From the NCBI GenBank assembly GCA_004356015.1, contig SMYD01000016.1, positions 6,612-70,611 on the forward strand: a stretch of 64,000 nucleotides of DNA, read 5' to 3'. The stretch comes from Acidobacteriota bacterium. Its GTDB lineage: Bacteria; Acidobacteriota; Polarisedimenticolia; SMYD01. Both the position numbers and the translations under genes were made by a program. The notes below the pieces were generated by a model that ran no database searches, was not told the origin of the DNA, and worked only from the letters and a program-made list of their open reading frames with translations. Below, in pieces: positions 1,624 through 55,320 of this stretch (positions are counted from its first letter, which is position 1; each line of letters starts with the position of its first letter).

Positions 1624-3723
1624 TTGGTGCCACGTCAGTTCCAGCTCAAAAAAACCCGAAACATCGGGATCATGGCCCACATCGACGCGGGTAAGACCAC
1701 CACGACCGAGCGGATCCTCTACTACACAGGGGTCACCCATAAGCTCGGTGAGGTGCATGAGGGCACTGCGCAGATGGATTGGATGCCCCAGGAACAGGAG
1801 CGTGGCATCACCATCACGTCAGCCGCTACCACCTGTACCTGGCGGGACACCCGGATCAACATCATCGATACTCCTGGGCATGTCGATTTCACCGCCGAGG
1901 TCGAGCGCAGCCTGAGAATCCTGGATGGGGCCGTTGCCATATTCTGCGGCGTGGCAGGCGTTGAGCCGCAATCCGAGACCGTCTGGCGACAGGCTGACCG
2001 CTACGGGGTTCCCCGTATCGCCTTTGTGAACAAGATGGACCGGCAGGGTGCCGACTTTCAGGGTGCGGTGAAGTCGATGGTTGAAAAGCTGGGGGCGCGG
2101 CCGGTTCCGGTGCAGTTGCCCCTGGGTGCAGAGCAGGCGTTTTCGGGAGTCATCGATCTGATCGAGATGCAGGCCATCCGTTATGAGGGTGAAGACCTGG
2201 GGGCGAGTTTTGAGAGGGTGGAGATTCCCGCTGAATTGCTGGCTGAGGCGCAGGCTGCCCGTGAGAAGGTGATTGAGGCCGCTTGCGAGGCGGATGATGA
2301 GTTGCTGGAGCGCTACCTGGCAGGTGAGTCCCTCGCGCCGGAGGATATCCGGCGCGGTCTGCGCAAGGGGACCCTGGATTTGCGCTGCGTCCCGGTTCTC
2401 TGTGGGGCGGCCTTCAAGAACAAGGGCGTGCAGCCCCTCCTGGATGCCGTAGTGGATTTTCTGCCCTCGCCTCTCGATGTACCGCCGGTAGAGGGGCATC
2501 TTCCTGGACATGACGAATCCGAGGTGATTTCCAGGAAAACGTCAGACGAGGAGTCCTTCTCGGCCCTGGTCTTCAAGATCATGAACGACTCTTATGTCGG
2601 TCAACTTTCCTTCTTCAGGGTCTATTCCGGAACGCTGGCTACCGGTGATCATGTCCTCAACGGCACACGGCAGCGCAAGTACCGTGTGGGGCGCCTGCTC
2701 AAGATGCACGCCAATAAGCGCGAAGATATACGGGAAGTTTATGCCGGAGATATTGCTGCCGCCGTGGGCCTCAAGGACGTGGCGACCGGCGACACAATTT
2801 GCGATATCGGCCACCCCATCATCCTTGAATCCATGCATTTCCCCTTGCCGGTCATCTCGGTGGCCATCGAGCCGCGCACCAAGGCCGACCAGGAGAAGCT
2901 CGGTGCCAGCATGGCCAAGCTGATGCTGGAGGATCCAACGTTCAAGGTGCACACCGACCCCGACACCGGGCAGACCATCATCTCCGGGATGGGAGAGTTG
3001 CACCTTGAAATCATCACCGACAGATTGACCCGCGAATTCGGTGTTCAGGCGCACGTGGGACGTCCCCAGGTTGCTTATCGGGAAACCATCCGCAAGGCTG
3101 CCAAGGGAGAGGGGCGCTACATTCGCCAGTCCGGGGGCCGGGGCCAGTATGGGCATGTGAAGATCGAGATCGAACCCAAACCCGGCGAAGGCGACCTGGT
3201 GGTGGAAAACCATATCAGGGGTGGTGCCATCCCCAGAGAATTCATTCCCTCGGCGACTGAAGGGGTGCGGGAAGCGGCTGAAATGGGCATTCTCGCTGGA
3301 TACGAGGTGAGGGATGTTCTTGTACGTCTTGTGGATGGCTCCTACCATGAAGTCGACTCCTCCGAATTATCCTTCAAGATCGCCGGTTCCATGGCTTTCA
3401 AAGATGCTTCGGGGAAGGCTGAGCCCGTTCTTCTGGAGCCCATCATGGACACTGAAGTCGTCGTGCCGGAACGCTATCTGGGCGATGTCATCGGCGATCT
3501 CAATGCACGGCGAGGGAAGGTGAAATCAATGACCTCCCATGGTGGGGCGCGGGTGATCGGTGCCAGCGTGCCGCTGGCGGAAATGTTCGGATATACAACG
3601 AATCTCAGGTCTCTTACCCAGGGGCGGGGGACCCATACAATGCAGTTTTCTCGCTATTTTGAGACGCCAAAAAACGTCAGCGATGCGGTCATTGCCCGTA
3701 TCACCGGCGCGGCAAGTCACTGA
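1624..3723 (+). CDS. fusA: Elongation factor G
   Basis: 699 aa; G-domain motifs [14 protein letters not shown] and DTPGHVDF, followed by the EF-G domains. The ORF begins with TTG at 1624. GTG at 1627, with GGAG 8 nt upstream, is an equally plausible start. Confidence 0.93.
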
Positions 3724-3760
3724 GGGTCACCCCGAGGGCCGGGGTGAATGGAGAAAGAAG

Positions 3761-4948
<1,188 letters not shown>

Positions 4949-4984
4949 AGTGCGGCAGGCGAGAGTAAGAGAGGACTGGAAATC

Positions 4985-5302
4985 ATGTTGAACGACAAGA
5001 TCAGGATTCGTCTCAAGGCGTACGACTTCCGTATTCTGGATCAGTCGACGACTGAGATCGTGGACACCGCTCGGCGGACGGGAGCCAGCGTTGTGGGGCC
5101 CATTCCCCTGCCGACGGTGATCAACAGGTGGACGGTGCTGCGCTCGCCTCATGTTGACAAGAAGTCGCGTGAACAGTTTGAGATAAGAACTCATAAGCGC
5201 CTGTTGGACATCCTTGAGCCGACACCGGAGACGGTTGATGCGCTCATGAAGCTGGACCTGCCAGCGGGTGTGGATGTTGAGATCAAGGCCTCCGGCCAGT
5301 AG
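4985..5302 (+). CDS. rpsJ: 30S ribosomal protein uS10
   Basis: 105 aa; [34 protein letters not shown]... is the S10 signature. Only 36 nt after tuf, so there is no separate S10 leader. Confidence 0.95.
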
Positions 5303-5320
5303 CCGCAGGAGTATGACGCG

Positions 5321-5953
5321 ATGAACGGCTTGATTGGCAAGAAAATCGGGATGACCCAGATCTTCATGGAAGATGGGGAAGCCTTGCCTGTGACTTTGAT
5401 TCAGGCTGGTCCCTGCGTGGTGGTTCAGAAAAAGGACACCGAAACGGATGGCTACAACGCTGTGCAGCTTGGGCTGGTCGAAAAGATTGCAGCCAGACGG
5501 GTGACCAAGGCCCGGCGTGGACATTTCGAGAAAGCCGGGCTGCCGCCGTGCCGCATTCTTCGGGAGTTCCGCTTGAGTGAGGGAGACGAGGCGCCTGCCG
5601 TGGGTGAAACCATCAGCGCTGACCTCTTTGCGGAGAACGACCTGGTAGATATCACTGCCAAGACACGTGGCCGCGGTTTCGCCGGAGTGATGAAGAGGCA
5701 CAAGTTCGGTGGAGGCAAGGCGACTCACGGATCCATGCATCACCGCCAGCCTGGTTCCATCGGGCAGTCGGCTTATCCATCGCGAGTGTTCAAGGGCATG
5801 CGTGGTCCTGGCCATATGGGTGACAAGTTCCGAACTTCCAAGAACATGAGAATCGTCAAAGTTGACGCGGAGAATAACATCCTGTTCCTGAAGGGCTCTT
5901 TGCCCGGGGCACCGAACGGGTATCTCATCATCAAGCGTTCGAGAAAGGGATAG
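5321..5953 (+). CDS. rplC: 50S ribosomal protein uL3
   Basis: 210 aa; [34 protein letters not shown]... Confidence 0.95.
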
Positions 5954-5957
5954 AGGA

Positions 5958-6587
5958 ATGTCCGCGGTCCAGGTCAGAAACCTGAAGAATGAGGAACTGA
6001 GTAGCCTTGAGTTGCCGGACAAGGTCTTCGCCTACCCGGCCAAGCATCACCTGGTGTACGAGGCGGTCTGCCACTTTCGGGCAGTCGGCCGCGCCGGGAC
6101 GCATGCCACCAAGAACCGGAAGGATGTCTCCGGTGGGGGGCGCAAACCTTACCGGCAGAAGAAGACCGGCCGTGCCCGCGCCGGCTCCATCCGATCTCCT
6201 CTGTGGCGTGGCGGGGGCACAGTTCATGGGCCCCAGCCACGGGACTACGGTTTTAACTTTCCGCGCAAAATGCGCTGGAACGCCGTGCGCTCCGTCCTCT
6301 CCGAGAAAGTTCGTGAGGGGAAGCTGATGGTGGTTGATGAGTTGAACCTCGATTCCCACAAGACCCGCGATCTGACCAGGACCCTGACAACCATGGGGCT
6401 GGCGGAAAAGAAGGCCTTGCTGGTGGATTTGCAAGTGCAGAAATCACTGGATTTGGCAGCGCGGAACCTCAAGGGTGTGCAGACCATGAGAGTCATGGCG
6501 CTGAATGCTTATGACATCCTCAATCATGAGTTCGTGGTTCTTACGGTGCCGGCCATCGAGCGCCTGCAGGAGTTTCTGGAATCATGA
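5958..6587 (+). CDS. rplD: 50S ribosomal protein uL4
   Basis: 209 aa; ATG at 5958. Position and sequence (...GGGRKPYRQKKTGRARAGSIRSPLWRGGG...) fit L4. Confidence 0.93.
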   Translation: MSAVQVRNLKNEELSSLELPDKVFAYPAKHHLVYEAVCHFRAVGRAGTHATKNRKDVSGGGRKPYRQKKTGRARAGSIRSPLWRGGGTVHGPQPRDYGFNFPRKMRWNAVRSVLSEKVREGKLMVVDELNLDSHKTRDLTRTLTTMGLAEKKALLVDLQVQKSLDLAARNLKGVQTMRVMALNAYDILNHEFVVLTVPAIERLQEFLES

Positions 6588-49242: not shown

Positions 49243-50007
49243 GTGCGCTGCAGCCCTGTGGTAGCATGCACTTTTCTCAACCCGCCATGCTGTGCGCCCG
49301 AAGGAGACAAGTTGAGCCGCGTCGATACGGGGCTGTTGCTGTTTGTTGAAGATCCGGCGCGCACGGTCTCCCGCTGGTCACAGGAAGAGCCGAGTGGAGA
49401 CACGGCGGTGGAAATGCTCGCCGCAGTGCATGGCGACCTGGTGGCCGTTCTCATGGGGGCGCCGGGGACCGCTCTCTACCTGGCACCGGCCGTTGCGGCC
49501 GACGAAGGCTATGTGAAGCAACTGGCCGGTACCTCCGGGGTGGCCATCCTGCAGGTGCCCATGGCTCCGCCACTGGAGCGCTGGGATGCGGGATTATCGA
49601 TCCTGTTCAACCGCTGCACGCATCGCAAGGTTCTCTGCGTCGACGGCGGCGTGCCCGATGTGGCGGTCGAGGATCTCAGCCGGGCCCGGCGCAAACTCGA
49701 TCTCTATGACATGGTTCTGGGAAGAGAAGGGGAGGATCGCTGCTGGCTGGTCGGCTTCAACGGCTACCAGGAAATCCTGGGACCGGCCAATGCCGGTCCT
49801 GACGACACCCTGCATCCTTTGCTCCAGGCCGCCGGTCGCGCCGGCCTGGATGTCTCCCTGCTGGATACCAAGCGAACCCTGGCCACCGGGCCGGACATGG
49901 ATCTGCTGCGGGGCCTGGCCCGGCGGGCGGATTATTCCCGCCTGCGCGCCGTTCTTGAACGGCACCACCCGGCCCGAAAGAGCCGCGAGGAGGCCGGCGC
50001 GAACTGA
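49243..50007 (+). CDS. Hypothetical protein, possibly DUF2064/MobA-CofC-like nucleotidyltransferase-fold
   Basis: 254 aa; GTG start; ...VLCVDGGVPDV...DLYDMVLGREGEDRCWLVGFNG... resembles GT-A-like nucleotidyltransferase folds. Weak assignment. Confidence 0.35.
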   Translation: MRCSPVVACTFLNPPCCAPEGDKLSRVDTGLLLFVEDPARTVSRWSQEEPSGDTAVEMLAAVHGDLVAVLMGAPGTALYLAPAVAADEGYVKQLAGTSGVAILQVPMAPPLERWDAGLSILFNRCTHRKVLCVDGGVPDVAVEDLSRARRKLDLYDMVLGREGEDRCWLVGFNGYQEILGPANAGPDDTLHPLLQAAGRAGLDVSLLDTKRTLATGPDMDLLRGLARRADYSRLRAVLERHHPARKSREEAGAN

Positions 50008-50065
50008 CGGGTGGCGCCGGTCTGTTGGCTGGTGTCCTCGCCCCGGCGGCGACACGGGCGGGGGC

Positions 50066-50094
50066 TTGACGGGCGAGGCTGTGGTTCCTAGAGT
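50066..50094 (+). promoter_or_regulatory. Candidate sigma70 promoter for the outer-membrane beta-barrel gene
   Basis: TTGACG 50066-50071, 17-nt spacer, TAGAGT 50089-50094; GGAGG RBS at 50184-50188 before the GTG at 50201. Confidence 0.35.
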
Positions 50095-50200
50095 CTCGAT
50101 GGCGCGTCGCCCCCATCGGCGCCCATCCCAGCCAACCGCTGGCGCCGTTCCCCACCCCACGACATCGCGGCCGCCCGCCCACGCTTCACGGAGGTAGAAG

Positions 50201-51046
50201 GTGAGATCAATCCGCTCAATCAGTGCTCCAGTCCTGGCCCTGGCCACCGCCCTCATGCTGCCTGTGGTCACGCCGGCCCAGTCGCAGTCAGCGGGAGCCA
50301 CAACCGCGTCTCCGGATGATCGGCGCTTCATCCAGATCTTCGTCCAGGATGCCGCCATCGTCGAGAATCTCTGGATCGAGGGGCAGATGCGCATTCAGTC
50401 CCTCAGCAATGGCGATGATGTTTTTCGCATCGGGCCGGTCTTCGCATTCAGCCCGCTGGACAGGCTGGAGATCGGCGGCCGCATTGATTACATCGATCGG
50501 GCTGTTCGCTTCGATGGCAGCGAATCGGGCCTGGGCGACACCACCGCCTGGGCCAAGTGGCAGTTCTTCCACAATCCGGTGCAGTTCACCGTGGGTGTGG
50601 AGTTGTACCTGCCCACCGGCGATGAAGATCAATTGCTGGGCACCGGGGAGTTCGATATCGGCGTATTCGGCGCGGTGCGCAAGAATCTGGATGAGGCGTA
50701 CATCACCGGCTATTTCGGCTTCCGGAACAACGGCGATGCCACGTTGGGGGCTGATGTCTTCAACAATGACGTCCGACTGGAAGGTGACACCAGCATCTTC
50801 CTGGGTGGCGGCGTCATGCTCCCGATCAACGATCGGTTCGCCCTCTCCGGGGAACTGAGAGTGGAGACCGAGCGTTACGAGCAATCGGTCGAGTTCATCG
50901 AAGGTGCCGAATCGCTCATCGATCTCACCGCCGGGGGCTACTGGTATCTCTCCAGGAAGGCGACCGTGCGTGCCGCCATCGCCATCGGGCTGGACGATGG
51001 CGCGCCGGACTGGCAGCTCATCGGCGGATTTGCCTGGCATTACTGA
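50201..51046 (+). CDS. Putative outer-membrane beta-barrel protein (signal peptide; alternating amphipathic strands; C-terminal aromatic residue)
   Basis: 281 aa; N-terminal MRSIRSISAPVLALATALMLPVVTPAQS signal; Gly/Asp-rich turns alternating with hydrophobic strands; ends ...GGFAWHY. Confidence 0.45.
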   Translation: MRSIRSISAPVLALATALMLPVVTPAQSQSAGATTASPDDRRFIQIFVQDAAIVENLWIEGQMRIQSLSNGDDVFRIGPVFAFSPLDRLEIGGRIDYIDRAVRFDGSESGLGDTTAWAKWQFFHNPVQFTVGVELYLPTGDEDQLLGTGEFDIGVFGAVRKNLDEAYITGYFGFRNNGDATLGADVFNNDVRLEGDTSIFLGGGVMLPINDRFALSGELRVETERYEQSVEFIEGAESLIDLTAGGYWYLSRKATVRAAIAIGLDDGAPDWQLIGGFAWHY

Positions 51047-51093: not shown

Positions 51094-52776
51094 TCAGGTG
51101 GATCGTCTGACGATCATCAGAGTCAGGTCATCAGGTTGAGGAGCATCACCTGCGAACTCCTCCAGGCCCTTCTGCACCGCCGCCCGGATTTCAGCGGGAG
51201 AGTTGCCGATCTGGTCCACCAGAATTTTTTCCAGGCGCTCGTCGCCGAACTCATCCTCCTGATCGTTCACCGTCTCGGTGACTCCGTCGCTGCAGATGAA
51301 GATGAAGTCCCCGGGCTGCATGTCGATGTCGCCCTGGGGATATGCAAACCCCTTGATGATCCCCAGGGGGACACCACCGGCAGGGAGCCGCTCGACGCCG
51401 CCGGCCGCACGCACCAGAACCGGCTCCGGCGCATGGCCGGCGTTGACGTAACGAACGTGGTGTTCCTTCAGGTTCAGTTCCAGGTAGAACAGGGTCACGA
51501 ACCGGTTGCTCGGGGCGACCCGGGCGACGGTGTTGTTGAGATGGGAGACCAGTTCCCGGGGCTCAGGCCCCATCTCCACGCGGGCATGAAAAGCCGCCTG
51601 GAGATTTGACATGAGCATGGCAGCGCCCATGCCCTTCCCGGCCACATCGGCCAGCACCATGGCGTAGCGTTCTTCGTCGATGCCCTGATAATCGTAGTAG
51701 TCGCCGCCGACCTCGTAACAGGGGATATTGAGGCCGGCGAATTCATAGCCAGGCACGTCCGGAGGCCCTTGAGGAAGCAGCCGTTTCTGGATGTCGGCGG
51801 CCGCTTCCGCCTCCTGATCCATGCGCCTTTTTTCCACCTGATCCTCGAAGAGGCGGGCGTTTTCGATCTGGATGGCGGCGATATTGGCCAGCACGGTCAG
51901 GACCCGCAGGTCCTCATCGGCGAACAGGCCAGAGGCCATCCGGGAGTCGGCGTAGATCAGCCCGATGACCGCCTTGTTGTTCCAGAGAGGCACGGCCATG
52001 ACCGAATGAATCCCCTGGGCCATGATGCTGGCCCCCTCCTTGAAGCGCGAATCGATCTGGGCATCGGAGGTGAGAATGGCGACACGCTGTTCCAGAACCG
52101 TATTGGCGATGGTGCGACTGATGGCCATTTCCTGGTTTGGACGGTCGCTGCGGGAGGCCCGGCAGATCAGTGAACCGTCGGCCTCCTTGAGGAACAATGC
52201 CGTGCGGTCGGGTTTCACCGCCCTGACGACGAGATCCAGGACCTTGGGCAGGAGGTGATCCATGGATTCATGTCCCAGCAGTTCCAGATTCGCCTTCTCC
52301 ACCAGTTCCAGCCGGCGGATGCGGGCCTGCATGTTCTCTGCCGCAGCCAGTGGGCGTCCGGCGGGTCTGGCTTGCCCGGGAATCATGCCCTCGGGCATGG
52401 TCATGACGTCCTTGAGAGGCAGGAAAATGGTTCCCTCGGAGGCCATGGGTTGATCGGAAAAGACCACCCTGCCGCGGGCTTCCCCCTTCTCCTGGTATTC
52501 GAGATGGTAGCCCCCCAGATCGATCCGATCTCCGGGTTTCAGGCGCTCGGGGGCATGCAATCTATGGCCGTTCAGGAAGGTGCCATTGCGGCTGCCGGCG
52601 TCCTGCAGAACCCAGCCTTCGGAATCGGGAAGAATTTCAGCGTGGTGGCGGGAGAGAGAGAGATCGGCCAGGAGCATGTTGTTCCGGGAGCTGCGGCCGA
52701 TGCGCACCGTTTCACCACTCTTCAGCTCATGGGTGGAGCGTTGACCGTCGCTGCCGGTGATGATGATGTGGGCCAT
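51094..52776 (-). CDS. FHA-GAF-PP2C (SpoIIE/RsbU-type) serine phosphatase
   Basis: 560 aa; N-terminal FHA (...VRIGRSSRNNMLLADLSLSRHHAEI...GSRNGTFLNG...), central GAF, C-terminal PP2C with ...GGDYYDY...VLADVAGKGMGAAM... Confidence 0.85.
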   Translation of the reverse strand: MAHIIITGSDGQRSTHELKSGETVRIGRSSRNNMLLADLSLSRHHAEILPDSEGWVLQDAGSRNGTFLNGHRLHAPERLKPGDRIDLGGYHLEYQEKGEARGRVVFSDQPMASEGTIFLPLKDVMTMPEGMIPGQARPAGRPLAAAENMQARIRRLELVEKANLELLGHESMDHLLPKVLDLVVRAVKPDRTALFLKEADGSLICRASRSDRPNQEMAISRTIANTVLEQRVAILTSDAQIDSRFKEGASIMAQGIHSVMAVPLWNNKAVIGLIYADSRMASGLFADEDLRVLTVLANIAAIQIENARLFEDQVEKRRMDQEAEAAADIQKRLLPQGPPDVPGYEFAGLNIPCYEVGGDYYDYQGIDEERYAMVLADVAGKGMGAAMLMSNLQAAFHARVEMGPEPRELVSHLNNTVARVAPSNRFVTLFYLELNLKEHHVRYVNAGHAPEPVLVRAAGGVERLPAGGVPLGIIKGFAYPQGDIDMQPGDFIFICSDGVTETVNDQEDEFGDERLEKILVDQIGNSPAEIRAAVQKGLEEFAGDAPQPDDLTLMIVRRST

Positions 52777-52909
52777 GAAGTCCTTTCAGGTCCCGTGCAC
52801 GGGCTCAGTCGAGCTGTGGAAGTGGTGGCGATTGCACCATCCTGAGCACGGCAAAGTCAAGCAGAGGTGGCGGGTTGGCTTGACGCGGTATTGGCCCGAG
52901 GTTAGGATA

Positions 52910-53380
52910 ATGATTTCAGGAACTCGGGTTCGGTCAGGGTCCGCGAGGAGCAGGTGCGTGTCCGGAAAACCACAGGTGCAGGTGGTTGTGGGGAGCCGGG
53001 TGGAATATGTGGATGCTTTGCACGCGGTTGCCGAAGAGATGGCCAAGCTGGCCGGGCTTCCTGAGGATGAAGGGTTTCACTTTGCCCTGGCCATCCGTGA
53101 GGCTGCCACCAATGCGGTTACCCATGGGAATGGCCAGGATCCGGCCAAGCAGGTAACTCTGAGTTTTGCGCTGGATGGGGGGGCCCTCATGGCCATCATC
53201 TGCGACCAGGGAGAGGGTTTTAATTTTGAAGGTGCGGCTGATCCACGGCTGCCTGAAAATCGCTTCAAGACATCAGGGCGTGGCCTGCTCCTCATGCGCA
53301 GTTTCGTGGATGAGGTGACCTACCAGCATCTGCCCGGCAAGGGCACCGAGGTGCGGCTGGTGAAACGGTTGGCCAACTGA
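52910..53380 (+). CDS. Anti-sigma-factor-like serine kinase (RsbW/SpoIIAB-type HATPase_c)
   Basis: ATG 52910 (AGGAT upstream). ...FALAIREAATNAVTHGNGQD...DQGEGF...SGRGLLLMRSFVDEV... are GHKL ATPase motifs. The track ORF start at 52757 overlaps the phosphatase gene and is unlikely. Confidence 0.75.
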   Translation: MISGTRVRSGSARSRCVSGKPQVQVVVGSRVEYVDALHAVAEEMAKLAGLPEDEGFHFALAIREAATNAVTHGNGQDPAKQVTLSFALDGGALMAIICDQGEGFNFEGAADPRLPENRFKTSGRGLLLMRSFVDEVTYQHLPGKGTEVRLVKRLAN

Positions 53381-53412
53381 ATGGAAACAGGAATGGGATT
53401 CGGAGGACGCTG

Positions 53413-53754
53413 ATGAAAGTAACCAAGCGGGAATACGGAGATGTCACGGTGGTCGACCTCAAAGGGAAGATCACCATTGGGCGTGGTGATGTGGTCCTGA
53501 GGGAGACGGTGGAGCAGCTTTTCGATGAGGGGCGCCGTGATGTCCTGCTGAATCTGGCCGGTGTCTCCTACATGGATAGCGCCGGTATCGGTGAACTTGT
53601 GGCCTGTCACAAGCGGGCCAAGGATAAGAACGGCAGGTTGAAGTTGCTCAATCCCTCAGGCAAGGTCTACGACTTGTTGCAGCTCACCAAGCTTGACGAA
53701 GTGTTCGAGACATTTACCGACGAGAAAACCGCCCTGGTGTCCTTCAACAACTGA
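53413..53754 (+). CDS. Anti-sigma-factor antagonist (STAS domain; RsbV/SpoIIAA-type)
   Basis: 113 aa; ...VVDLKGKITIG...LNLAGVSYMDSAGIGELV..., with the phospho-acceptor serine in the SYMDSAG context. Confidence 0.85.
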   Translation: MKVTKREYGDVTVVDLKGKITIGRGDVVLRETVEQLFDEGRRDVLLNLAGVSYMDSAGIGELVACHKRAKDKNGRLKLLNPSGKVYDLLQLTKLDEVFETFTDEKTALVSFNN

Positions 53755-53815
53755 CGAGATGCGCCTGCAGCGGCCCGGCCCTCTGTTTTGGTGCGCGGGA
53801 GCTTGTGACACGAAG

Positions 53816-53848
53816 AAAAAGCCGGCCTCCCGGAGAGGGGAGACCGGC
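53816..53848 (-). terminator. Intrinsic terminator for the minus-strand secreted-protein gene (convergent with rsbV-like gene)
   Basis: 10/11-bp GC-rich stem GCCGGCCTCCC / GGGAGACCGGC with loop GGAGA(G). On the minus strand it is followed by a TTTTTC run (AAAAA at 53816-53820 on the plus strand). It lies 23 nt beyond the gene stop. Confidence 0.55.
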
Positions 53849-53870
53849 CATGATCGAGTCAGATCTTTCT

Positions 53871-55139
53871 TCAGCGTCCGTTGGCACCGCGGCGTAATTC
53901 TGTGATGTCGACTTCAACGGGATCGGTGTAAGTGCGGCTACCGTCCAGCGCCGTGACTTCCAGGCGGTAGAAGAGCGAGTTGCTGGCGCGCTCAGGCATC
54001 CGGCGCGACAGGATGTCCACCGCGACGAAATTGCCCTGCATGCCACTGACCTGGATGTTCTGCCGGGTGATGGGGTGGTATGGCCCCTCGCTCTGGCTGG
54101 CTCGCAGAAGGCTGAACGAACCCACACCGGCAAGGCTGTCGGCCTGCCAGTCCAGGACGATCCGGTGGCGTTCCAGGCGTCCCCGCAGGCCGCTGACCTG
54201 GCTGGCCTGGGACTGGAAGGTGACTGGATAGGAGTTGGCGGAAAAGAAGGTCGAGGCCACGTCCTGGGCGTAGACCAGCCTGATGGCGGCCACCAGGCGC
54301 TGTCCCGCAGGGTCGAATCCTGCCAGCACGGGATCCCCGGCGGCCAGGGTAAAGCTGGTGGTGCTCAGCGGCAGGAACATGCCTGGCGTTGCCTCGATGA
54401 GATTGCCGAGTGCCTCGGCGCTTCTCAGTTCACTCTCGCTGGGGCCCAGCCGGCGGCTTCGATCCTGGGCCATGAAGTACAGCTTGTACCCCTTGACCGG
54501 GTTGGGAGCGCCGTCATTGATGCTGAGAGCGGCGGCCTCTTCCCAGATGAAGTCGATATTCCCGCTGTCACTGAACCAAACAGTAGGCCGCGGGATGGGC
54601 GACAGGCCTCCAAGGCGGGAGATGGCGCCGGCCGGGCCGAAGCCATCCAGATCGTTGCCCGACTCGTAGGCCAGAGCGAGAAAGCAAGCCGTCGATGAGA
54701 CCACGGGCAGGCAGGTGGAGGATGTGGAGTTGCCCAGCTCACCGAAGCTGACGACCTGCGACTGGGCGCCGAAATACCCCACATGGTCAAATCTGTCCTG
54801 GTTTGTGACGCCATCCCACACCGCGAACCAGTTCAAGTCGGTCAGGCCGAGGCTGGACGGGTAATTTCCGGTGAGCTGCGAATCCGCCTGATAGAATTTC
54901 CTCTTGCGGTAAGCGGGGAAGCCATCAACCGGGTTGGCGGCACCAAGAAAATCGGTAGGATCGACTTCGTTGTAGATCCGCACATGGAGATTGCATGGGT
55001 CAAGACCCCGGCCGCACTGGAAGATGTCTCCCTCTTGTCCGAGAACCGTAGACCCGACGATCTCGCCCGACGTCTGTGCGAAGCCGGCCGCCGGCACGAG
55101 AAGAGCGGCGGCGGCAAACAGCATCAGGAACTTCTTCAT
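53871..55139 (-). CDS. Secreted hypothetical protein (422 aa) with signal peptide and beta-rich C-terminal domain
   Basis: N-terminal MKKFLMLFAAAALLVPAAGFAQ signal peptide; no recognisable catalytic motif; several Cys. Confidence 0.5.
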   Translation of the reverse strand: MKKFLMLFAAAALLVPAAGFAQTSGEIVGSTVLGQEGDIFQCGRGLDPCNLHVRIYNEVDPTDFLGAANPVDGFPAYRKRKFYQADSQLTGNYPSSLGLTDLNWFAVWDGVTNQDRFDHVGYFGAQSQVVSFGELGNSTSSTCLPVVSSTACFLALAYESGNDLDGFGPAGAISRLGGLSPIPRPTVWFSDSGNIDFIWEEAAALSINDGAPNPVKGYKLYFMAQDRSRRLGPSESELRSAEALGNLIEATPGMFLPLSTTSFTLAAGDPVLAGFDPAGQRLVAAIRLVYAQDVASTFFSANSYPVTFQSQASQVSGLRGRLERHRIVLDWQADSLAGVGSFSLLRASQSEGPYHPITRQNIQVSGMQGNFVAVDILSRRMPERASNSLFYRLEVTALDGSRTYTDPVEVDITELRRGANGR

Positions 55140-55200
55140 TAGACTTCCCCCTTGTATGTCGTCCTTGCACAGACCGGTTGCCGGCAGCCAGGACTTCAGT

Positions 55201-55320
55201 GGACATATATGGTATTCTCTTGAAGTATATATTTAGAATACTCTATTGCAATATAGAATCTAATGATTCTGCATCTTCTCTATAATTTCCATAAAACAAA
55301 GGAAAATCTGGATAAAGATG
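55201..55320. promoter_or_regulatory. AT-rich (about 25% GC) divergent regulatory island with nested palindromes and a perfect TATAAT
   Basis: Inverted repeat GTATTCT(55212-18)...AGAATAC(55236-42). Perfect 10-bp palindrome TATTGCAATA (55244-53). GAATC-taat-GATTC (55256-69). TATAAT at 55281-86. Sharp drop from the surrounding GC content of about 65%. Confidence 0.5.

Follow-up and report, generated by a model that had tools for sequence, protein, structure and literature searches.

The locus at positions 51094-55139 of a 64,000-nucleotide (nt) stretch of contig SMYD01000016.1 (hereafter the window, to which all coordinates refer unless a locus label is given) raises the question of what a phosphatase, a switch kinase and a STAS protein of an uncultured member of the Acidobacteriota might control where their genes are accompanied by none for a sigma factor. 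The region contains four genes: one for an FHA-GAF-PP2C (SpoIIE-type) sensor phosphatase of 560 amino acids (aa) on the minus strand (51094..52776); divergent from it across 181 bp (52777..52957), one for an RsbW/SpoIIAB-like GHKL serine kinase of 140 aa (52958..53380, plus strand); 32 bp further on, one for a single-domain STAS protein of 113 aa, of the anti-sigma-factor antagonist superfamily (53413..53754, plus strand); and, convergent with these, one for a 422-aa secreted protein (53871..55139, minus strand), a neighbour outside the module. We conclude, with a probability of roughly 0.6, that the first three proteins constitute a partner-switching module that receives its input through the FHA and GAF domains and has its output in trans. 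This assignment is based on their domain content, on the integrity of the residues on which their families depend and on the recurrence of their linkage in unrelated genomic contexts.

The first-pass annotation of this DNA had read the minus-strand product as an RsbU-type phosphatase with an FHA and a GAF domain as its input, and Pfam recognizes all three domains: FHA at aa 24-88 (52513..52707; PF00498, E 7e-20), GAF at aa 172-304 (51865..52263; E 9e-15) and the SpoIIE/PP2C catalytic domain at aa 367-558 (51103..51678; PF07228, E 1.5e-48). In an AlphaFold2 (AF2) model with a predicted local distance difference test (pLDDT) score of 81, the order is FHA (aa 1-95), a low-confidence and probably disordered linker (aa 98-146; 52339..52485), GAF (aa 172-286), a continuous 47-residue helix (aa 287-333; 51778..51918) that is a candidate signalling or coiled-coil linker, and PP2C (aa 344-558); the helix was seen in a single-chain model of the monomer. 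An alignment of 30 homologues, with identities as low as 42%, shows no variation in the phospho-Thr-binding residues G27, R28, S42, R43, H45, N64, G65 and T66 of the FHA domain or in the metal-binding residues D359, D377, D497 and D549/D550 of the PP2C domain. The conserved FHA loop residues (Gly-Arg, Ser-x-x-His and Asn-Gly-Thr) are all present, and the domain is a predicted phospho-Thr-binding domain with its key residues intact. Its closest solved fold in Foldseek is the FHA domain of GarA, and it gives weak matches to the FhaB and OdhI models of NCBIfam. The PP2C domain is nearest in structure to Pseudomonas aeruginosa RssB, SpoIIE, Rv1364c and SiaA (E ~1e-13 to 1e-14), with PstP-type phosphatases farther off (E ~1e-8 to 1e-9), which favours a phosphatase of the partner-switching type. 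The complete FHA, GAF and SpoIIE architecture is present in all 120 best database matches, and at least 595 relatives were found by scanning species-representative genomes, the best 80 loci of which, nearly all approximately full length, belong to Acidobacteriota (Polarisedimenticolia, Blastocatellia, Aminicenantes, Bryobacterales and Terriglobia), Eisenbacteria, Zixibacteria, Latescibacterota, Ignavibacteria and others.

The divergent pairing of this phosphatase with a GHKL switch kinase and its predicted STAS substrate, also proposed from the letters of the DNA, was borne out, with the catalytic and phospho-acceptor residues intact, although the extent first given to the kinase gene was too long. 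The mechanically called open reading frame (52757-53380, plus strand) shows the HATPase_c_2 domain only at its aa 80-203, whereas a GTG at 52958, with GAGGAG 7 nt upstream, yields a protein of 140 aa that is covered over 100% by homologues of 140 aa. We take this GTG, and not 52757, as the likely real start. The kinase matches HATPase_c_2 (PF13581, E 5e-27) and aligns over its full length with Bacillus subtilis RsbW (6m36, E 6e-11) and with SpoIIAB. Its N box (REAATNAVTHGN), G1 box (DQGEGF; DxGxG) and G2 box (SGRGL; GxGL) are invariant in 27 homologues, including N52, D83, G85, G87, G107 and G109. The STAS protein consists of one PF01740 domain (E 1e-18), scores 69 bits against TIGR00377 (cut-off 53) and aligns with RsbV and SpoIIAA, whose phospho-serine coincides with Ser56 of its YMDSAGIG segment (codon 53578-53580); the DS[AS]G motif is found in 73 of 80 STAS orthologues and the residue is always Ser.

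As the protein families and their intact residues indicate, the 140-aa kinase would phosphorylate Ser56 of the STAS protein and the FHA-GAF-PP2C phosphatase would take this phosphate off; the unphosphorylated STAS protein would then bind the kinase, changing the partners of the kinase or those of the STAS protein itself. The phosphatase mechanism in partner-switching families has been described (PMC12143880; PMC11418112) and the behaviour of the families reviewed (PMC8256260). Architecture suggests that the GAF domain may act on the PP2C domain by way of the long helix, an arrangement proposed for RsbU-type linker-mediated dimerisation, and architecture together with gene neighbourhood suggests that the FHA domain may dock on a phospho-Thr produced by a Hanks-type Ser/Thr kinase whose gene lies elsewhere in the genome. 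The site so bound could belong to the kinase, to a different protein or possibly to the disordered linker of the phosphatase itself. Our best guess for the output is that a transcription factor bound by the GHKL kinase is set free.

A GarA-like intramolecular latch is put forward here as a weak hypothesis. The linker (aa 98-146) holds a semi-conserved RVxFSDxP...GT[IV]xx[LI]P stretch that includes Thr116, and a Thr at this position with Ile or Leu at +3 was found in approximately 26 of the 30 close homologues. When 107 sequences were taken more widely, the Thr was present in 59, and Ile or Leu followed at +3 in 30 of those 59. Thr116-x-x-[I/L] was accordingly downgraded from a firm FHA ligand motif, since its conservation falls outside the close clade and the alignment of a disordered linker is unreliable.

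The linkage of the genes was surveyed from both sides, with homologous loci drawn from database genomes and metagenomes and labelled with L-numbers: around the phosphatase, in the best 80 of the 595 or more relatives, within 6 kb on either side and with self-built profiles; and around the kinase, in 83 loci, 68 of which could be evaluated for the position of the STAS gene and 24 of which were long enough to be evaluated for a sigma factor gene within 5 kb. The divergent cassette of the window recurs in L001/L002 at 59% identity, in L004/L005 and L010 at 42% identity with wholly different flanks, and in L093, L094, L095, L099 and L101. A second arrangement occurs in Aminicenantes (L045 3011-8115; also L058, L046 and L056), where genes for a STAS protein, an 805-aa protein, the phosphatase and an RsbW-like kinase follow one another on the same strand; the 805-aa protein has no match in Pfam and could be a module-specific partner. 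The STAS gene lies directly downstream of the kinase gene in 60 of 68 loci, across the Acidobacteriota. Taken as a whole, the kinase-centred survey suggests that the kinase-STAS pair is an old, syntenic unit of the phylum, unlinked to sigma factors, to which the FHA-GAF phosphatase has been attached in some lineages.

Input from Ser/Thr kinase signalling through the FHA domain, another proposal of the first-pass annotation, is likewise favoured by gene neighbourhood in addition to the invariant FHA residues. A Hanks-type kinase gene was found near the phosphatase gene in 22 of the 80 loci, directly adjacent and on the same strand in about a dozen of them. In two metagenome cassettes, L095 (1713-4175) and L099 (1420-1620), a gene for a receptor-type Hanks kinase lies directly 3' of the STAS gene. 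The one in L095 starts 74 bp past the STAS stop codon and encodes 820 aa with a kinase domain, a transmembrane segment and a TPR-like C-terminus. A different neighbour was observed in L004/L005, from a Polarisedimenticolia-like genome, where a gene for an FHA-GAF-HisKA-HATPase_c histidine kinase, approximately 3 kb past the STAS end of the cassette, is followed by one for a sigma-54-activator response regulator (3177-6247); the presence of FHA and GAF on this histidine kinase suggests that the FHA-GAF sensor is reused on different output domains.

Several results weigh against a partner switch governed by these three proteins, or against parts of it. The kinase scores 55.5, 48.2 and 40.4 bits against the NCBIfam equivalogs TIGR01925, NF003144 and TIGR01924, far under their cut-offs of 135, 145 and 155, and is therefore not an orthologue of RsbW or SpoIIAB. 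FHA domains read phospho-Thr specifically, not phospho-Ser, and, since the phospho-site of the STAS protein is always Ser, that site is not the FHA ligand. No Hanks kinase gene was found in the window with the self-built profiles. The majority of phosphatase homologues have neither a switch kinase gene nor a STAS gene next to them, an RsbW-like kinase gene having been found near the phosphatase in 6 and a STAS gene in 8 of the 80 loci, and conversely the phosphatase gene stands beside the kinase-STAS pair in only 5 of the 83 kinase loci (L093, L094, L095, L099 and L101). Such sparse pairing suggests that the association is lineage-specific and that the phosphatase family may have other substrates. 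Finally, a sigma factor gene is adjacent to the kinase-STAS pair in 0 of the 83 loci, which counts against a sigma factor as the target.

As had been stated by the first-pass annotation, no sigma-B-like gene was found in the window: when its 64 kb were searched in six frames for the sigma-70 family (phmmer --max; SigB, SigF, RpoE and RpoD seeds), the best E was 0.38, in a test that responds to similarity at the family level only. The self-built profiles detected no second STAS, RsbW-like or PP2C gene in the window either. An RsbV-RsbW-SigB operon continuing just outside the window, which the same annotation thought would turn the locus into a standard sigma-B module, cannot apply, because the order is kinase and then STAS protein, followed by a convergent gene. 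Elsewhere, a sigma-70-family gene was found near the phosphatase in 5 of the 80 loci and within 5 kb of the kinase-STAS pair in 3 of the 24 long loci, never adjacent. The one locus in which a phosphatase gene stands beside STAS, kinase and sigma factor genes is L009 (4257-7653), from an Acidobacteriota metagenome-assembled genome: the phosphatase gene (45% identity) is divergent from a STAS-kinase pair, and convergent on that pair is a gene for a 278-aa group-3-like sigma factor with regions 1.2, 2, 3 and 4. However, the kinase of L009 has 27% identity to that of the window and the STAS proteins could not be aligned; the pair thus belongs to a different subfamily, and L009 was rejected as proof that a kinase-STAS pair of the window type controls a sigma factor.

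The output is not encoded in cis. The missing linkage to a sigma factor cannot by itself settle what the output is, because cases are on record of anti-sigma kinases whose sigma factor is unlinked, and sigma-less, non-canonical partner switches are known as well (PMC8256260). An unlinked sigma factor is, in our estimation, the single most likely target held by the kinase, with a chance that falls slightly short of even.

Among the alternatives, the one that survives best, although we consider it appreciably less probable than the partner switch as described, is that the same phospho-switch operates with a non-sigma output, so that the unphosphorylated STAS protein or the kinase acts directly on a target such as an enzyme, a system for secretion or for polysaccharide, or some further regulator, the kinase serving only to set the phosphorylation state of the STAS protein, as with SypA, BtrV, RbaV and Anabaena All4160. 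The conservation of the kinase-STAS pair across the phylum with a sigma factor gene never adjacent agrees with this explanation, as does the order of the two genes, the reverse of that in RsbV-RsbW-sigma operons, and non-canonical STAS outputs are documented (PMC8256260; bioRxiv 10.64898/2026.04.08.717354). Clustering of the genes around 44 long kinase-STAS loci returned as recurrent neighbours an HD-domain/dGTPase-like protein (15 loci), TPR_21 (14), ComM (11, window included), MutS (10) and a REC-GerE response regulator (9), the last of which, 3' of the pair, would suit a regulatory output. As candidates for a conserved fourth gene that could provide the output these were rejected, being housekeeping genes plus REC-GerE, of which only ComM is found in the window, and in distant relatives no conserved target gene comes with the cassette, its neighbours being of the housekeeping kind (ComM, MutS, HD-domain/dGTPase-like). 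Control of a transporter by the STAS protein, which the first-pass annotation had suggested, finds no counterpart in the surveyed loci, where no SLC26/SulP gene or other conserved fourth gene accompanies the cassette. Moreover, the kinase keeps full-length similarity to RsbW and SpoIIAB, both of which bind sigma factors. We also observed, in L088 (6865-9403), L090 (6888-9543) and the 44 long loci, a conserved synteny in which genes for REC-GerE, TPR_21 and HD-domain (dGTPase-like) proteins often come after the kinase-STAS pair, and MutS or ComM is often nearby.

A broader proposal, which we regard as doubtful, makes the kinase-STAS pair a core regulator inherited vertically throughout the Acidobacteriota, with a non-sigma output (the REC-GerE regulator that comes after it in some genomes, or an enzyme), into which Hanks signalling has been wired, in the lineage of the window, by an FHA-gated, GAF-tuned phosphatase, perhaps with phospho-Thr116 as a latch. 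If true, it would represent a direct relay from Hanks kinase to FHA domain, PP2C and STAS protein, of which no characterised example was found in our literature searches.

It is also conceivable, though unlikely, that the phosphatase chiefly counteracts a Hanks-type kinase pathway, its FHA domain bringing it to Hanks kinase substrates that it dephosphorylates, and that its adjacency to the kinase-STAS pair in this lineage is a matter of cross-talk or chance. A Hanks kinase gene is indeed its commonest signalling neighbour (22 of 80 loci, against 6 for an RsbW-like kinase); Mor1 (44% identity), L006 (52%, where the phosphatase gene is divergently paired with a Pkinase gene) and L007 (45%) have the phosphatase without an adjacent kinase-STAS pair; and in Mycobacterium tuberculosis PknD acts on the anti-anti-sigma homologue Rv0516c (PMC1847690). 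Against this, the catalytic domain is of the SpoIIE type and structurally nearest to STAS-directed phosphatases, the linkage of phosphatase, kinase and STAS genes recurs in at least two independent arrangements with different flanks, and in L095 and L099 the Hanks kinase gene lies within the cassette rather than in place of the kinase-STAS pair.

That the 422-aa secreted protein is a regulated output or functional partner of the module is very improbable: its gene is convergent with the STAS gene at 116 bp from the stop codon and is found on the same contigs as the phosphatase gene in close relatives (103502, 27243 and 9683 bp), but genes for a 275-aa protein of unknown function and a GNAT protein intervene between the STAS gene and its homologue in L001/L002, it is absent from the L004 and L010 cassettes (42% identity) and from those of L095 and L101, its close homologues are confined to one narrow clade whereas the kinase-STAS pair is phylum-wide, and it has its own terminator and promoter region. 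Its grouping with the module by the first-pass annotation was accordingly rejected on synteny, and, since its adjacency to the STAS gene is not conserved, we treat it as an unrelated neighbour.

In its sequence-level features, the partner-switching module proposed here matches everything that defines a partner switch except for a co-encoded sigma factor, which is not required for membership because non-canonical members are also without one (PMC8256260; bioRxiv 10.64898/2026.04.08.717354). It shares its three protein families, a kinase of approximately 140 aa and a STAS protein with a DSxG serine with the RsbU-RsbV-RsbW-sigmaB and SpoIIE-SpoIIAA-SpoIIAB-sigmaF systems of B. subtilis, and RsbW/RsbV (6m36) and SpoIIAB/SpoIIAA are the best solved-structure matches of its kinase and STAS protein. 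It differs from them in having no sigma factor gene in the operon or in the 64 kb, and in the order kinase-STAS instead of STAS-kinase-sigma. The input is also distinct, FHA and GAF taking the place of the N-terminal domain by which RsbU responds to RsbT and the stressosome, or of the membrane domain of SpoIIE; with this N-terminus, and with one STAS and one HATPase_c_2 gene in the window, the features of a stressosome-dependent RsbU system were not found.

Sets of phosphatase, kinase and STAS proteins whose output is either unknown or not a co-encoded alternative sigma factor include BtrU/BtrW/BtrV of Bordetella, RsbU/RsbW/RsbV1-2 of Chlamydia, RbaV/W/Y of Rhodobacter, SypE/SypA of Vibrio and HenR/All4160 of Anabaena (PMC8256260; PMC3999984; bioRxiv 10.64898/2026.04.08.717354). 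None of these has been described with an FHA-GAF phosphatase, while the module of this uncultured bacterium is known from its genes alone. A GAF domain predicted to be joined to a PPM phosphatase by a long helix is a likeness to RsbZ of Clostridioides difficile and to the proteins of Baral et al. 2025 (PMC12143880), from which the phosphatase studied here is distinguished by an additional N-terminal FHA domain, a disordered linker of approximately 50 residues and one GAF domain in place of two in tandem. In Sorangium cellulosum, sce0876 joins an FHA domain to a SpoIIE-like phosphatase and was listed among several sensor fusions in a paper that includes no functional work (PMC2887360); FHA and GAF are there on separate proteins (sce0876 and sce6543), whereas here both are on one phosphatase linked to a kinase-STAS pair. 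FHA-SpoIIE fusions and GAF-SpoIIE fusions are thus each on record (PMC2887360), and the general model now current already includes PPM phosphatases with a linked GAF domain (PMC12143880). The action of PknD on Rv0516c (PMC1847690) is a precedent for Hanks input to an anti-anti-sigma pathway, with the difference that the M. tuberculosis kinase phosphorylates the STAS homologue directly, while in the route proposed here a phospho-Thr would be bound by the FHA domain that the phosphatase carries. That domain is structurally closest to GarA, an FHA regulator of the GarA/OdhI kind, and the intramolecular phospho-Thr switch would be the hypothetical part of the likeness.

Partner switching is a major signalling device of bacteria, for which signal reception by the phosphatases is known for few sensor types. 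In our searches of the literature we met with no FHA-GAF-PP2C partner switch that had been characterised, and with nothing on Acidobacteria, although this little-studied phylum is abundant in soils and sediments. The cassette and its relatives offer a compact case in which a phospho-Thr reader (FHA) and a small-molecule sensor (GAF) are predicted on one RsbU-type phosphatase, and some relatives also have a Hanks kinase gene inside the cassette, so that a connection of partner switching to eukaryotic-like Ser/Thr kinase signalling can be put to the test here. Nothing in these results contradicts current models; their value lies in an experimental candidate for the coupling of Hanks kinases to partner switches rather than in any surprise.

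Several properties attributed to the 422-aa neighbour by the first-pass annotation were found, namely predicted secretion, by a Sec-type signal peptide recognized on inspection (MKKFLMLFAAAALLVPAAGFAQ), a terminator-like element of its own and an AT-rich upstream stretch, while the description of it as an orphan was rejected: although it has no match in Pfam or NCBIfam, it has 21 close homologues (at least 48% identity) in one narrow clade, with four conserved cysteines, and a profile search matched 313 proteins at E<=1e-3. Structure prediction and remote-homology search, which had been recommended for it, succeeded in part, with two FN3-like beta-sandwich domains (aa ~181-420) found after a Cys-containing N-terminal domain (aa ~23-180) whose AF2 model from 18 sequences remained below a pLDDT of 50. 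Several of the profile matches fuse the N-terminal domain to TSP_3 (thrombospondin type-3) repeats or MopE motifs, which suggests that these members are extracellular proteins; TSP_3 is calcium-binding and MopE metal-binding, and the N-terminal region (aa 1-300) defines a family absent from Pfam.

The terminator-like element 3' of the 422-aa gene is a hairpin of 12 bp (9 GC pairs) followed by a T-run, located between the convergent STAS and 422-aa genes (53820..53849, minus strand). At the other end, an AT-rich block (55200..55320) separates the 422-aa gene from the divergent yicC, with 26% guanine plus cytosine (GC) at 55200-55299 against ~60% around it. A motif in this block, CTATATTGCA(A/T)T ... 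AAATATATA(C/T)TT, is conserved in L001 (6190-6270; 59% protein identity) and could be an operator or UP-like element; yicC diverges from this AT-rich region in the window, which is not the case in L001. An ATTGCA hexamer common to the promoter regions of the kinase and 422-aa genes was dismissed as too short to mean anything. Upstream of the kinase gene there is a candidate sigma-70-like promoter (TTGACG-17-TAGGAT; 52880-52908, plus strand), proposed by match to the consensus only, whose -35/-10-like blocks show partial conservation with L001. No RNA element matched in the whole window at Rfam gathering thresholds, and PADLOC returned no defence-system match for any of the four proteins of the region, so that a defence-system reading was dropped.

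The flanks are of the housekeeping kind, with a Na/Ala symporter, ComM and two unknowns on one side and yicC-gmk-rpoZ-coaBC-udg-priA on the other. The DNA belongs to a metagenome-assembled genome of an uncultured member of the Acidobacteria, and a protein with 100% identity is on record as E2P03_01620. The two genes between comM and the phosphatase gene (49243-51046) encode a 254-aa product without a family match and a 281-aa protein with a signal peptide and weak, sub-threshold matches to DUF3187 and to an outer-membrane barrel family of the MetA pathway. Unannotated genes of similar size (228 and 272 aa) occupy the same positions in L001, the likeness being one of size and position alone. 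The GC content of the window is ~58% in its first 24 kb, which include a ribosomal-protein operon, secY, rpoA and carB, and ~63-69% from 24000 to 64000, with lipopolysaccharide and Kdo genes and the rest, the GC skew being positive throughout.

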